The notes under the pieces: model-generated | Databases searched by the model: none | What the model was told of the DNA's origin: nothing | What the model saw: the letters and a program-made list of their open reading frames with translations, nothing else | Translations under genes and position numbers: made by a program | DNA from: Escherichia coli | GTDB lineage: Bacteria; Pseudomonadota; Gammaproteobacteria; Enterobacterales; Enterobacteriaceae | DNA: 64,000 nucleotides | Assembly: GCF_003790525.1 (NCBI RefSeq) | Contig: NZ_CP033635.1 | Reading direction: 5' to 3' (one strand) | Part shown: piece after piece, positions 10,424 to 49,738 of the stretch | How positions within the stretch are numbered: the first letter of the stretch is position 1 | Layout: each line of letters starts with the position of its first letter

Positions 10424-11849
10424 TAATGCCAGTCAGTTAAGCAACTGACTGGCTCTTTTTCGGGGCTGTGGGGTATTTCCAGGGCCTCTCCTTTACCACT
10501 CTCGGGAAGGCCCTTTCCCTTCTTGTCGGTAATTTCACAAGTTGTCCCATACTTGCAAGATCGCGCATCAGCTCCGGTATACGTCCCGGTGAAGCGCCCT
10601 GCAATGTCATCAGCATTCTCATCACCATTCCACATGATTCTGAGAAACTCAGTTGATTCGGCCAGTAACCTTTCAGATGTTCCGCCATTTTAATCATCTG
10701 ATATCTCACCAGATTATAAGCCAGTAAGACACCCCACAGCTCTTGCTCCACAAGCTCCGGTTTTTTACTTCTCAGCGTCAGCCTGCTCAGTTGCATCGTC
10801 TGTTTTATCTCCCTGTATCCCAGTTCGATTTCCCAGCGATGACTGTACAGATCCGCCATTTCTCCTCCGGGGAAGCGCATGGCGTCCGTCATCGACGTCA
10901 GCAGATGGCAGACTTTTCCTTTGCGCGTCACGGTCAGCAGGCGGGCTGTCACTTCATTTCCCAGTCCCGGCCACTTTTTTCGTGCCTGCGGGCTGGTTTT
11001 CAGCTTCACCAGATGATCGCCTTTACCCAGTTTTCTGATCTCTTCATATTGCGCTCCCTTTCTGAGAGGTATCATCCAGTGGCGGTGTTCTCCCGCCAGG
11101 CTCCAGGCATTTAACAGTCCCAGTGAGTAATAACCTTTATCCATTAACGTCAGAGTGTTATCGCCGGTTTGTTCTATAAGTTGCTCAGCAAGCTCATTTT
11201 CGCTGTTCTTCATCGTGCCGAAGGCTGCAGCCGTCAGCAGATGGCTGGTCAGTTCCATCTGGCAGACCATTTTGACCTGCGGGTAGAGCGCCGGGTTCCC
11301 GGCATGTGTCTGGCGGGGGAAGGCTGCATCGTTCTCTGGTGTATCCGGTGTGCGCCAGAACACACCATCGATGGCCAGCAGGGTCAGGCCGCACCAGTGC
11401 GGATGCGGCGTGGCGTTATGCCAGAGCTGCGCTGTTTTCGTGAACACGCGGCGGACAGCCTCACTTCCCAGGCGCTGGCGGGCCTGAATAACGGCACTGG
11501 GGGCAACGAAGGGGCGATTGCCCGGCAGCATGATGTCCAGGCGATTCACAATCTGGTGAAGAGGTTCTTTACGCTCAAGCGCCATGCCAACAATACACCA
11601 GACCATCATTTCGAGGGGAAGACGGCGCTTGCGTAGCGTTACAGTACCTGATTCGGCAAGGCAACGAGAGATGAGTTCGGGGTCGAGGTAATCCCCCAGA
11701 GAAGTCAGTGGGTTACGCAGAGAATCGTAACGGGATACCAGATCAAGAGCCTGTCCAATGTGCATAAAAAAATCCGGAAACAAGTGAGCGTTTCCGGATT
11801 CTTACACAGCCACTGGATCGGTCAACTGATCCTTAACTGATCGGCATTA
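10424..11849 (-). mobile_element. Insertion sequence IS4, 1426 bp, complete
   Basis: Terminal inverted repeats TAATGCCAGTCAGTTAAG (left) and TAATGCCGATCAGTTAAG (right, reverse complement), 16 of 18 matching; encodes the full-length transposase; flanked by a 12-bp direct repeat. Confidence 0.92.
10437..11765 (-). CDS. insG: IS4 transposase (DDE family)
   Basis: 442 aa from [26 protein letters not shown]..., the IS4 InsG sequence as I recall it; no frameshift or stop. Confidence 0.92.
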
Positions 11850-14846: not shown

Positions 14847-15818
14847 TTACTGTTGCAGTTCTTTCTCAGTGAAGAGATCGGCAAACAATGCGGTGCTTAA
14901 ATAACGCTCACCCGATGATGGTAGAATAACCACAATATTCTTGTTGGTAAAGCTTTCATCTTCTTGTAGTTTCAACGCCGCGGCAACAGCTGCTCCAGAA
15001 GAGATACCAGCAAGAATACCTTCTTCTTCCATCAGACGACGTGCGGTAGAAATGGCTTCTTCATTGGTGATGCCAATGACTTTGTCGACCAGCTTGAGAT
15101 CGAGGTTAGCCGGGATAAAACCAGCGCCAATACCCTGAATTTTATGCGGGCCAGGTTTAATCTCTTCACCTGCCAGCGCCTGGGCGATAACTGGAGAATC
15201 GGTTGGCTCAACGGCGACAGAGATAAGATCGGTCTTGCCTTTGGTGCCTTTAATGTAGCGGCTGACGCCAGTCAGCGTACCGCCAGTCCCAACGCCAGCA
15301 ATAAATACATCAACCTGACCGTCGGTATCTTCCCAGATCTCCGGACCGGTGGTTTTTTCGTGAATTTCAGGGTTTGCCGGATTGCTGAATTGTTGCAGCA
15401 GCAGGTATTTCTCTGGATTGCTGGCGACAATTTCTTCTGCTTTTTGGATTGCGCCTTTCATGCCTTTAGCACCTTCGGTCAGCACCAGGTTTGCACCTAA
15501 CGCTTTCAGCAGCTTGCGGCGTTCAATACTCATGGTTTCTGGCATGGTCAGGGTAAGTTTGTAACCGCGAGCGGCAGCGACATAGGCCAGTGCAATCCCG
15601 GTATTACCGCTGGTTGGTTCAACCAGTTCAACGCCTGGTTTCAGCACGCCGCGCTTTTCGGCATCCCAAATCATGTTGGCACCGATACGGCACTTAACGC
15701 TGAAGCTGGGGTTACGAGATTCCACCTTCGCCAGAATGCGTCCGTTACCGATGCGATTCAGGCGAACCAGCGGTGTGTGACCGATAGTCAGCGAGTTATC
15801 TTCAAAAATCTTACTCAT
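14847..15818 (-). CDS. cysK: Cysteine synthase A (O-acetylserine sulfhydrylase A)
   Basis: 323-aa ORF ([44 protein letters not shown]...). Confidence 0.97.
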
Positions 15819-25762: not shown

Positions 25763-26647
25763 ATGGAACGCGTATATAGAACAGATCTTAAGTTGCTCCG
25801 TTATTTTCTTGCCGTAGCGGAAGAGTTGCATTTTGGTCGCGCAGCAGCGCGTTTAAATATGTCTCAGCCTCCGCTCAGTATTCATATTAAAGAGCTGGAA
25901 AATCAACTCGGCACGCAGCTTTTTATTCGCCATTCGCGCAGCGTCGTACTGACACACGCGGGCAAAATCTTGATGGAAGAATCGCGTCGATTGCTGGTGA
26001 ATGCAAATAATGTATTGGCTCGGGTTGAACAAATAGGTCGGGGAGAAGCAGGGCGGATTGAACTCGGGGTTGTGGGAACGGCAATGTGGGGACGGATGCG
26101 CCCGGTTATGCGGCGATTCCTTAGAGAAAATCCTAACGTTGAAGTTCTGTTTCGCGAAAAGATGCCCGCGATGCAAATGGCCTTGCTGGAACGCCGCGAA
26201 CTTGATGCCGGGATCTGGCGAATGGCGACAGAACCACCGACTGGTTTTACCAGCTTACGGTTGCATGAATCGGCGTTTCTGGTGGCGATGCCTGAAGAGC
26301 ATCATCTCTCATCATTTTCCACCGTCCCGCTGGAAGCGCTACGTGACGAGTATTTCGTTACAATGCCGCCCGTGTACACTGACTGGGATTTTTTGCAGCG
26401 AGTTTGCCAGCAGGTGGGATTTTCACCGGTTGTTATTCGCGAAGTTAATGAACCGCAAACGGTACTCGCCATGGTCAGTATGGGTATTGGTATCACATTG
26501 ATAGCGGACAGCTACGCGCAGATGAACTGGCCCGGTGTCATATTCCGTCCGCTCAAAGAACGCATCCCGGCAGACTTATATATTGTTTATGAAACGCAGC
26601 AGGTGACGCCCGCGCTGGTTAAACTGCTGGCGGCGTTGGCGCAGTAG
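25763..26647 (+). CDS. xapR: LysR-family activator of xapAB
   Basis: 294 aa from MERVYRTDLKLLRYFLAVAEELHFGRAAARLNMSQPPLSIHIKELE; the ORF could start at 25748 instead. Confidence 0.9.
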   Translation: MERVYRTDLKLLRYFLAVAEELHFGRAAARLNMSQPPLSIHIKELENQLGTQLFIRHSRSVVLTHAGKILMEESRRLLVNANNVLARVEQIGRGEAGRIELGVVGTAMWGRMRPVMRRFLRENPNVEVLFREKMPAMQMALLERRELDAGIWRMATEPPTGFTSLRLHESAFLVAMPEEHHLSSFSTVPLEALRDEYFVTMPPVYTDWDFLQRVCQQVGFSPVVIREVNEPQTVLAMVSMGIGITLIADSYAQMNWPGVIFRPLKERIPADLYIVYETQQVTPALVKLLAALAQ

Positions 26648-28939: not shown

Positions 28940-29356
28940 CCTGACCAGGTGTTTGCTGTTGTTCAATGTATTGGCGGATGACGGATATTGGCGCACCTCC
29001 GCAGCTACTGGCAAAATAGCCAGGACTCCACAAAACGCCTTTGTAGTAATACCTGACTGCAATATCTGGTCGATCTCGTCGCAGTCACCTACCCGATACG
29101 CCTTTGAGGCTGTTTACCAGACTGGATATCGCCAGTTTGGGAGGATAGTTAATTAACAAATGGACGTGATCTGGTTCGCCATCCATTTCAACCAGTTCAG
29201 CTTCAAAATCAGCACATACATTTGAAAAGTAAGTGCGTAGTTTTTCTGTCGCGTCATGGTCAAAAATCTGGCGTCGGTATTTGGGACAAAGACCAGGTGA
29301 ACATGCATCAGGAAAACACAATGCCTTCCACGCCGGATATCGGTTTCTTTTTTCAC
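28940..29356 (-). pseudogene. tnpA: IS200/IS605-family HUH (Y1) transposase TnpA, inactivated by a frameshift and an in-frame TGA; extent approximate
   Basis: N-terminus ...RHCVFLMHVHLVFVP is in one frame and ...PKYRRQIF...EMDGEPDHVHLLINYPPKLAISSLVNSLKGVSGR in another (1-bp shift at about 29285); TGA at 29082-29084, after which the same frame continues LWSPGYFASSCGGAPISVIRQYIEQQQ (catalytic Tyr region). Confidence 0.7.
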
Positions 29357-29378
29357 AGACCAAAATATAATTTGACCT

Positions 29379-30589
29379 GTGAAACGACTACAGGCATTTA
29401 AATTCCAGTTAAGACCCGGTGGTCAACAGGAGCATGAAATGAGGCGCTTCGCAGGCGCATGTCGTTTCGTTTTCAATCGTGCTCTGGCGCTTCAGAATGA
29501 GAATCATGAGGCCGGTAATAAATACATCCCTTACGGGAAAATGGCTTCCTGGCTGGTTGAGTGGAAAAACGCCACTGGAACGCAATGGCTTAAAGATTCT
29601 CCCTCACAGCCATTGCAACAGTCACTGAAAGACCTTGAGCGGGCTTACAAAAACTTCTTCCAGAAGCGGGCTGCTTTTCCCCGATTCAAAAAGCGGGGAC
29701 AGAATGATGCATTCCGCTACCCGCAGGGCGTTAAGCTCGATCAGGAAAACAGCCGTATTTTTCTGCCGAAACTGGGCTGGATGCGCTACCGGAACAGCCG
29801 TCAGGTCACGGGTGTTGTGAAAAATGTCACGGTCAGCCAGTCCTGCGGTAAGTGGTACATCAGTATTCAGACAGAAAGTGAAGTATCAACTCCGGTTCAC
29901 CCTTCAGCATCAATGGTCGGGCTGGATGCCGGCATGGCTGAACTTGCCACGCTGTCAGATGGGGCACAGTCTTTGAGCCTGTAAACAGTTTTCAGAAAAA
30001 CCAGAAGACGCTGGCGAGACTTCAGCGACAGTTAAGCCGCAAGGTCAAATTCAGCAATAACTGGAAGAAGCAGAAACGCAAAATACAGCGACTGCATTCC
30101 CGTATCGCAAATATCCGCAGGGACTACCTTCACAAAGTCACAACGACCGTCAGCAAAAACCACGCAATGATAGTCATTGAGGATTTGAAGGTCAGCAACA
30201 TGTCAAAGTCAGCAGCGGGTACGGTCAGCCAGCCGGGGCGCAATGTCCGGGCAAAATCAGGTTTAAACCGTTCGATACTGAATCAGGGCTGGTATGAAAT
30301 GCGCCGCCAGCTTGAGTACAAGCAGCTCTGGCGTGGCGGTCAGGTGCTTGCTGTTCCGCCAGCGTACACAAGCCAGCGTTGCGCGTGCTGTGGTCATACA
30401 GCGAAAGAAAATCGCCTGTCACAAAGTAAATTCAGATTCCAGGTATGTGGATATACAGCGAACGCCGATGTAAACGGCGCTCGTAACATTTTAGCGGCGG
30501 GGCACGCCGTTCTTGCCTGTGGAGAGATGGTGCAGTCAGGCCGCCCGTTGAAGCAGGAACCCACCGAAATGATTCAGGCGACAGCCTGA
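29379..30589 (+). pseudogene. tnpB: IS200/IS605-family TnpB (RuvC-like, OrfB_IS605 plus zinc ribbon), split by a single frameshift near 29970
   Basis: ORF 29379..29984 ends ...GLDAGMAELATLSDGAQSLSL; the next frame continues FEPVNSFQKNQKTLARLQRQLSRK... into ORF 30167..30589 (...IVIEDLKVSNM...CACCGH...C..C...NGARNIL); joined length about 403 aa. Confidence 0.8.
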
Positions 30590-46422: not shown

Positions 46423-47280
46423 TTAGCCCTGAAAACGGGCGCTGTACTCTCCCGGCGTCAGGCCAAACTGACGCCGGAAAATGCGACAAAAATAGTCGCT
46501 GTCCGGAAAACCGCAACGCTGTGCCACTTCATGAATCGACAGATGATATTTCTGCAAAATCATCCTTGCCTTTGCCATTCGTACCCAGCGAACATACTCG
46601 ATAAAACGCATTGTTCCATGCTGAGCAAACAGTTTTGACAGATGATTGGGCGTGATATTAAAAAACTGAGCCACGCTCTCGCGGGTGAGCTGCTGGGCAT
46701 AATTATCCTGAACCCAGTTACAAATGCTGTGATAGAGAAAATCGCCGCGCGGCTGCGAATTGCCCGGTGGCATATTCACCACGTTGCGGCAAAGATGCAG
46801 CAAACTTAACACCAGTGGCTGAATGATATTCTGCTCCAGCGGCGAACGGCTAAGATGGGTGAGGGCGGTAAGCATCGCTTCACCTTCGCCGCGTTGCAGG
46901 CTGGGAAGCTGGATCTGGCGGGCAGGATGCAACAACGACGTGGTGCGGCTATCGTAAAACGATAACCCAAGCCAGGTCGGTGCGAACACCAGGCTTAACA
47001 GCATCACCGGTTTGTTGTTGACCGGTAAATTAGCCGCGCGTGCCGGAATAAACAGCATTTCTCCTTCCACCATACGTTGCTGCTTTGCTTCCAGCAGATT
47101 GCCGTATTCGCCGCGTAGCACGATATCCAGACGGGGAAAATCAATACATAAACTGCCCACTGGCAATGAGGCAGGCTGGCTGGCAAACCAGACGCGCCCC
47201 AGTAGTTGCGGGTTAAGCACCAGGCCGCTGAACAGATCGGCGAAAAATTGTTGATCGGCGGGCAAGCCTGGTGCTTTCAT
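46423..47280 (-). CDS. ypdC: AraC-family transcriptional regulator
   Basis: 285 aa with C-terminal AraC HTH. Confidence 0.9.
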   Translation of the reverse strand: MKAPGLPADQQFFADLFSGLVLNPQLLGRVWFASQPASLPVGSLCIDFPRLDIVLRGEYGNLLEAKQQRMVEGEMLFIPARAANLPVNNKPVMLLSLVFAPTWLGLSFYDSRTTSLLHPARQIQLPSLQRGEGEAMLTALTHLSRSPLEQNIIQPLVLSLLHLCRNVVNMPPGNSQPRGDFLYHSICNWVQDNYAQQLTRESVAQFFNITPNHLSKLFAQHGTMRFIEYVRWVRMAKARMILQKYHLSIHEVAQRCGFPDSDYFCRIFRRQFGLTPGEYSARFQG

Positions 47281-47292
47281 GAAAGTTCCCGA

Positions 47293-48026
47293 TTAAAGAT
47301 GCATTAACTGGCGGAATTCTTTAACTTTGCTGCGGCTGACCGGCACTTCAAAATCCAGATCTTTCAGCCGCAGAATGTAGGTGTTATTAAACCACGGTTC
47401 GATCTCGCGGATTTTGTTCAGATTGACACAAAATGAGCGATGGCAGCGGAAAAATGCGACGGCGGCAGCTTGCTGCAAAACTCGGTAATGTTCATCGGCA
47501 TTACGTAGGATTCACGCCGCGTATAGACAAAGGTCATTTTCTCATGCGCTTCGGCGTAATAGATATCGTTAATTGGCGTGACGATGATTCGCTCATCTTT
47601 CACCAGATTAATGGTGTCATTCTCACGCGTTACCGTCGTGGCAGGCGTACTGCTGGTCTGCTGTTGTTGCCAGGCTGCTTCCAGTTTTTGTAGCATCCCG
47701 GTAATGCGTGACTCCTGATACGGTTTGAGAATGTAGTCAAACGCCTCCAGTTCAAACGCTTCTACCGCATGTTCTTTCCATGCGGTGATAAACACAATAA
47801 ACGGTTTATGGGCGAACTGGCTGATGTTTTGCGCCAGCAACACGCCATCCAGCGACGGAATATTGATATCCAGAAAAATGGCGTCGACGCGGTTATGCTG
47901 CAAAAACTTCAACACGTCCAGACCGTCGTCAAAGGTGCCGACAATCTCCATCTGGCTGTGCTCTTTAATTAGCCAGCTCAGTTCCTGTTGTGCCAGGAAT
48001 TCGTCTTCAACAATGATGACTTTCAC
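47293..48026 (-). pseudogene. ypdB: LytTR-family response regulator YpdB, interrupted by a 1-bp frameshift in a homopolymer run
   Basis: REC domain plus most of LytTR in ORF 47418..48044 (ends ...KLPPSHFSAAIAHFVSI); the LytTR C-terminus FFRCHRSFCVNLNKIREIEPW... is in the overlapping ORF 47293..47478; frames meet at the T5 run 47450-47454 (minus strand); start may be the GTG at 48026 or the ATG at 48044. Confidence 0.8.
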
Positions 48027-48040
48027 AATATCACTCCGGC

Positions 48041-49738
48041 TCAAAGCAATAACGTAGCCTGTGAGGCGACTGGGGTGCGTTGGTTAGGAATGTAAAACGC
48101 AATTTCCGTTCCTGGTTCCAGGCGGCGGATATGCAGCCCCTCGCCATACAATAACTTCACGCGATGATGGACATTCAGCAGACCAATTTTATTGCCCGGC
48201 ATTTCGTTCGCTTCGACCCGCTCAATGACTTTTGGATCGATGCCGTGCCCGGTGTCTCGCACCGCAATGCGTACCCGATTACCGCACTCTGCAACGCTGA
48301 TGGTGACAACGCCTTTACCTTTGCAAGGCTGAATACCGTGGACAATGGCATTCTCCACCAACGGCTGGATCAGCAGGCTGGGAATGCAGCAATTCACCTC
48401 TTCATCAATATCATAGATAACCGTCAGCTTGTCGCCAAAGCGGGCCTGCTCAATGGCAATATAGTCTTTAATTTGATACAGCTCTTTTTTGATATCGATT
48501 TGCTCATCGTCTTTTAATTCAATGTTATAGCGCAGATAACGCGACAGATTAAAGATCAGCTGGCGAGCGGTATCCGGATTCAGACGGATTGACGATGAAA
48601 TAGCGTTCAGAGCGTTAAACAGAAAATGGGGATTAATTTTGCTTTGCAGCGCGCGAAGCTCTGCCTTATTTGCCATTTCACGTAACTGCTCGGCACGCGA
48701 AACCTCCAGTTGCGTGGAGATGATTTGCGACAGACCGACCGCCATTTCCTGTAATGATGACGTAATCTGATGCGCGTGGCAGTAGTAAATTTTCAGTGTT
48801 CCGGTCACAACGCCTTTCTCCCACAATGGGATCACCAGCATGGAATGAATCTCTGGTGTGCGGTGGGCTTCATCATTGTTTTTAATGATGATTTTTCCGT
48901 AATTCATCGCCTGTCGGGTAGTCGGGCTAATGAAGTCATCGCCATTCTGATAGTTGTGTTCACCCACGCCGACATAGGCCAGCACATGATCAGTATTAGT
49001 AATCGCCACCGCATCGGCGTGAATGTCATCGCGGATAATTTCGCAGACCTTGCGTAATGACTCGCTATTGACATGGCGAAACAGCGGCAGCGTTTTGTTG
49101 GCAATATCCAGCGCCAGCTTGGCCTGCCGCGCGGCGCTGGCCTCTTTTTCGCCCTCAACGCTTTGCACCAGCAGCACAATAAAGCCGATACAGACGCTAC
49201 CGAGGATCATTGGAATCCCGATTTTAGAGACGATATCGATCCCCAACGCGGTAGTTGGTGCCCAGACAATCACCAGAATCATGGTCAACGTTTCACATAA
49301 CATGCCGCCGAGAATACCGACGCGCCAGCGCTGTGCTTTAGGGATTTTCAGGTTGATCCAGCCCGATATACAACCCGCCAGAATGCTGGTGATAAAGCAG
49401 GGGATCGCCGTCACGCCGCCGATATCAATTAAATAACGGTGAATACCTGCGATCACGCCGGTAATAATGCCTACCCACGGGCCAAACAGAATTCCGCCTG
49501 ACATCACCGCGATAATACGTACGTTCACCAGCGAGCCTTCTACGGGAACGCCGGACCAGGTGCTGAACAGGGCGAACAGCGAGAAAATGGCGGTAACGGC
49601 GAGCAGCTCTTTCGGTGAGTGTGCCGACTTGTGCAACAGTTCGCGAAACAGGCGGATACGGATGAGAAAGAACAGGCAGATAAGCATTAACGCTGCCCGA
49701 TCGAAGACCGCCAGCAGCATGTTGAATATTTCGTGCAC
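48041..49738 (-). CDS. ypdA: Sensor histidine kinase of the YpdA/YpdB two-component system (5TM-LytS/GAF/HisKA)
   Basis: 565 aa with membrane N-terminus and C-terminal HATPase motifs. Confidence 0.92.

Follow-up and report, generated by a model that had tools for sequence, protein, structure and literature searches.

YpdB of Escherichia coli (WP_001298580.1) is the LytTR-type response regulator of the pyruvate-responsive two-component system YpdA/YpdB. This system switches on yhjX once external pyruvate reaches about 600 uM, and it cross-talks with BtsS/BtsR (PMC5552118). The yhjX promoter has two sites to which YpdB binds by means of its LytTR domain, and Asp53 is the phospho-acceptor of the protein (PMC4847170). 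YpdB is also used by BtsS (PMC5552118, PMC4847170, PMC9765748). When both btsS and ypdB are mutated in a uropathogenic strain, acid or organic acids do not induce yhjX (PMC9765748). In Pfam comparisons of intact YpdB, residues 3-112 match a receiver domain and residues 146-242 match a LytTR DNA-binding domain (PF04397, about 98 positions), the latter over model positions 2-97 of 98 (E = 5e-34).

A natural null allele of ypdB, E159* (GAA to TAA), is present in GCA_001285725.1 on the 188-kb contig CYCH01000008.1 (L044, 1501-1977). This allele is almost certainly real, being a substitution on a short-read contig of that size. The 158-aa product of E159* is found on 73 contigs, some of which are contig-end truncations rather than copies of the mutation.

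In the window, the 64,000-base stretch of E. coli DNA analysed here, the ypdB region (47293-48044, minus strand) consists of two overlapping open reading frames, as read from the list of open reading frames and the sequence itself. The first (47418-48044, minus strand) encodes 208 aa when counted from an upstream TTG. The second (47293-47478, minus strand) encodes 61 aa and ends at the native TAA (47293-47295). The start annotated in relatives is a GTG at 48026. From that start, the 5' part of the gene as it now reads (47418-48026, minus strand; delimited by translation and Pfam) encodes 202 aa, compared with 244 aa in the intact protein. The frame breaks after Phe192, so that 192 native residues are followed by 10 out-of-frame residues (SAAIAHFVSI) and a TGA at 47418-47420. 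The 3' part (47293-47451, minus strand) is out of frame and holds native residues 193-244 (FRCHRSFCVNLNKI...QLMHL) and the native TAA.

The break is caused by one missing base. The minus strand reads TTTTT at window positions 47450-47454 (A5 on the plus strand), compared with TTTTTT in every comparable E. coli genome. A three-way alignment of the window, SMS-3-5 and strain 165 contains one differing column in 852, a single gap at which the window reads CATTTTTCC and both references read CATTTTTTCC. When one T is put back, the translation is the 244-aa protein WP_001298580.1. The locus thus agrees with described YpdB in 851 of 852 aligned bases, in gene order and in a receiver domain that carries Asp53, and differs from it in a frame that is unbroken in the described gene. 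The entire window matches E. coli SMS-3-5 (NC_010498.1, 2575216-2639216, reverse strand) with no mismatch and one gap, the ypdB T, which excludes a chance resemblance to ypdB. A first-pass annotation of the same DNA had described a LytTR regulator gene, ypdB, split into two overlapping frames, with T5 in place of T6 and the reading ...KLPPSHF-FRCHRSF... restored by an added T. Both frames are found, and the alignment and the translation agree with the proposed repair. As written, ypdB is a pseudogene.

The flanking genes are intact, as that annotation had also stated, and both are identical to the annotated genes of SMS-3-5. Upstream, ypdA (48041-49738, minus strand) encodes a LytS-type sensor histidine kinase of 565 aa that is identical to WP_000544359.1. 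Downstream, ypdC (46423-47280, minus strand) encodes an AraC-family regulator of 285 aa that is identical to WP_000646860.1. The order ypdA-ypdB-ypdC is the same as in annotated relatives, and the broken gene occupies the position of the YpdB orthologue. From the premature ypdB stop to the start of ypdC there are 138 nt, compared with 12 nt from the native stop. This longer distance could slightly lower ypdC expression.

The 202-aa product retains the receiver domain (Response_reg at residues 3-112, E = 2e-24), and Asp53 is present in the translation. The LytTR match is confined to residues 146-192, or model positions 2-48 of 98. The C-terminal LytTR domain is therefore incomplete, with model positions 49-98 replaced by 10 unrelated residues. 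The conserved segment FRCHRS and everything downstream of it are out of frame. Because LytTR is a single 10-stranded beta fold (PMC5552118), half of the domain is not expected to bind DNA. The window allele and E159* are alike in that both encode a truncated protein that keeps the receiver and loses LytTR function, next to intact ypdA and ypdC. They differ in that E159* is a base substitution, whereas the window lesion is an ambiguous homopolymer indel.

Within its own clone, the window is exceptional only at this base. Many complete genomes match it as well as SMS-3-5 does over window positions 36000-60000, apart from the same gap, and over positions 1-25000. At least eight clone-mates match as well as SMS-3-5 over 49 kb. 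Genomes of the clone come from humans, chickens (poultry), dogs, water and a pangolin, and all of them carry T6. The clone is tight and widely spread, and apart from the ypdB T nothing in the window separates its source from SMS-3-5.

Comparison of the run length with other E. coli ypdB alleles, a check proposed in the first-pass annotation, identifies T6 as the expected state. Among 5,422 complete E. coli genomes, none carries T5 (exact 44-mer across the run, placed to avoid nearby SNPs) and none carries T7 (46-mer); the best matches to both queries are T6. The same annotation had allowed that related strains might share T5 with a different downstream frame, and this set of genomes offers no such case. 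In JGI metagenome contigs there are 24 copies of T6 and none of T5, and no T5 is found in GTDB representative genomes. The deletion is private to this record and is placed at the very tip of the tree.

The first-pass annotation had posed the choice between a real mutation and a homopolymer assembly error, and this is the right question for the locus. The cause that we infer, with somewhat better than even confidence, is a homopolymer undercall kept in a long-read-based consensus, or some other non-biological loss of the base. The deletion, its restriction to this record and the domain loss are themselves shown. A non-biological cause is slightly more likely than a property of the living strain. 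The lesion removes one base from a homopolymer and is found in this one record and in none of its clone-mates. Changes of this class are the characteristic error of long-read consensus sequences. Real divergence in E. coli yields about ten substitutions per indel, and the window contains no other private change in 64 kb, not even one substitution. The window runs straight through an IS4 insertion (10437-11783), which lies between crr and pdxK, is common to the clone and belongs to an element with 5-8 copies per genome. The assembly must therefore be long-read or finished. The class of the change, the fact that no substitution accompanies it, the need for long reads across IS4 and the noisy origin of most public T5 calls together favour an artefact.

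Other deposited records of the clone contain errors of a related kind. In a comparison of five complete genomes of the clone over window positions 1-25000, the private differences are nearly all homopolymer indels of one base, gained or lost, and CCAGG to CCGAG changes, within the multi-copy IS4. Homopolymer indels are present in the IS4 copies of LS45, 23CRST013, CM2 and CS5L, and PGAP calls the transposase frameshifted in all four. The IS4 copies of CM2 and CS5L also contain CCAGG to CCGAG changes, as is typical of uncorrected nanopore errors. These IS4 frameshifts are probably artefacts in RefSeq records. In unique sequence, M172-1 (NZ_CP058714.1) has a murP A4 to A3 deletion (window position 838), and its murP is annotated as a frameshifted pseudogene; whether this private one-base indel of the same clone is real is uncertain. 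The one true substitution among the compared clone-mates is in cysA of 23CRST013. Residual homopolymer errors clearly do reach finished records. The ypdB lesion resembles the residual long-read errors of the clone-mates in being a private one-base change in a short homopolymer that makes a conserved gene an annotated pseudogene. It differs in location, as the errors of the clone-mates cluster in IS4 together with Dcm-motif errors, whereas the IS4 of the window is clean and its sole change is in unique sequence. As a rough estimate from the clone-mates, about 0.05-0.1 private events per 64 kb are expected for each cause, real or artefactual.

The cleanness of the window counts against an artefact. 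At all 276 other homopolymers of at least 5 bases, among them nine 7-mers and one 8-mer, the window agrees with the Sanger reference SMS-3-5. There are no further errors of the same kind within the 64-kb window, and the IS4 copy is intact. So clean an assembly leaves little room for errors, and polishing with short reads would normally correct a T6 in a unique region.

The tnpA and tnpB frameshifts in the window cannot be used to judge the assembly. The first-pass annotation had treated them as parallels to the ypdB slip, but the identical frameshifted pseudogene is already present in the Sanger-finished SMS-3-5. The element is a decayed member of the IS200/IS605 family (28947-30589, between gltX and yfeD) that comprises a tnpA remnant and a frameshifted tnpB/insQ. 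In SMS-3-5 it is annotated as frameshifted and incomplete, and the window copy is the same base for base. Matches of 99% or higher are present in at least 32 complete genomes. The remnant is an old decayed insertion sequence with inherited lesions, it is uninformative on assembly quality, and its use as a gauge is rejected. Related copies of the remnant are located near ydcO in K-12-like strains.

The main alternative is a genuine, very recent loss of function, in which replication slippage dropped one T in the strain itself. The probability of this account falls a little short of even. The surrounding 64 kb is free of errors, including its repeats and longer homopolymers, which argues for an accurate assembly. 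Null alleles of ypdB are natural and tolerated, as E159* on its 188-kb contig illustrates. The YpdA/YpdB system is supplementary to BtsS/BtsR (PMC5552118), so its loss is plausible. Together with the otherwise clean window and E159*, three public contigs that carry T5 favour a real mutation. In two of them (L006, 1-6160, and L007, 1-6071), T5 is the sole difference from complete genomes of two other lineages over about 6 kb. It may therefore be that the site genuinely slips from T6 to T5 in nature. The third (L008, from ERR15602660) carries T5 as well and belongs to the clone of the window itself, with 1 mismatch over 5.1 kb. Set against a real mutation are the lack of T5 in all 5,422 complete genomes and the character of the public T5 calls, most of which come from demonstrably noisy runs and whose number is within the range of simulated controls.

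The exact 202-aa product is encoded on about 15 (13-15) public contigs, all of which are Logan read-set assemblies shorter than 10 kb. The ten T5 contigs that were examined represent at least four lineages. Six of these ten contain additional one-base homopolymer deletions within 2-9 kb, which break ptsP, ypdA or ypdC. Five runs from one accession block, together with ERR10498692, come from a single B2 strain and differ by 0 SNPs. Homopolymer lengths in this strain vary from run to run: a ypdA T6 is read as T5 in two of four contigs, and an upstream T5 is read as T4 in one of four. The run data behind the T5 calls of this strain are noisy. ERR10498116 and ERR10498692 are neighbouring accessions from two different lineages, and both have the ypdB T5 with no other indel (L006 and L013, 1-2166). 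SRR15988974, from a third lineage, likewise has T5 without another indel. The pattern in these three runs could reflect either a platform-specific systematic undercall or independent genuine slippage.

As a control, a one-base deletion was simulated in ten other 6-base homopolymers in genes of the window, and the truncated proteins were looked up. Eight of the ten are present in public data, and the numbers of contigs are 1, 3, 59, 1, 2, 0, 253, 0, 83 and 1. Some of the matches are in 454-era and NCTC assemblies and affect essential-pathway genes such as cysK. Because the count for ypdB T5 is within this range, the public matches are background and are no evidence of selection on ypdB. The recurrence of T5 as a selected or hot-spot mutation is rejected on these controls and on the undercalls in most of the source runs. 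Two of the simulated products are of separate note. For xapR (window about 25763-26647), the T6 to T5 product has matches on 253 public contigs, 5.4-Mb chromosomes among them, and may represent a true pseudogene allele that is widespread. For cysK (window about 14847-15818), the A6 to A5 product occurs on 83 contigs, some of them from 454-era and NCTC assemblies, and looks like a recurrent sequencing error.

A more elaborate version of the real deletion is very improbable. In this version, a stable receiver-only YpdB would serve YpdA and BtsS as a phosphate sink or decoy. The BtsS/BtsR-YpdA/YpdB pyruvate network would thereby be re-wired in a phylogroup F clone that is widespread and multidrug-resistant. 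Trace full-length YpdB could be added by -1 slippage on the T run.

The least probable reading makes the T run a programmed -1 frameshift, a site of transcriptional slippage or a contingency tract for on-off switching of YpdB. It is rejected, as T6 is found in each of the 5,422 complete genomes and T5 and T7 in none. In its favour, if tRNA-Phe slipped by -1 on CAT TTT T, it would pair perfectly again and restore the wild-type HFFRCHRS, so that trace full-length YpdB is conceivable. An X XXY YYZ heptamer is absent from the zero frame, CAT TTT TCC. At 5 bases, the run falls far short of the length known for transcriptional slippage or phase variation, about 8-9 or more A/T. No relative shares the frameshift, and the metagenome contigs agree (0 T5, 24 T6). 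In E. coli prfB (+1) and dnaX (-1), the full-length product needs a change of frame, as it would in ypdB here. The shift sites of prfB and dnaX are conserved in all relatives and have a defined slippery motif and stimulators, whereas the ypdB shift is unique to one record and has no such signals. Accordingly, at most a trace of full-length YpdB is expected from the T5 allele.

The locus offers nothing new in kind. Either a well-characterised accessory regulator has become a pseudogene through a homopolymer frameshift, or the record has a one-base error, and both outcomes are ordinary. Its importance beyond one isolate is small. A lone homopolymer frameshift in sequence that is otherwise identical to clone-mates is not interpretable without reads. 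If the missing T is an artefact, the result is a one-base correction to the genome record. If it is real, the T5 product would keep the phospho-receiver and lose residues 193-244, the second half of LytTR, and could not activate yhjX. A receiver-only YpdB would be unable to bind the yhjX promoter, and induction of yhjX by pyruvate or acid through YpdA or BtsS would be lost. In that case, ypdA and ypdC would stay intact, with ypdC perhaps weakly affected by polarity. As yhjX is a transporter gene, its failed induction would be a modest phenotype in a well-studied accessory signalling system.
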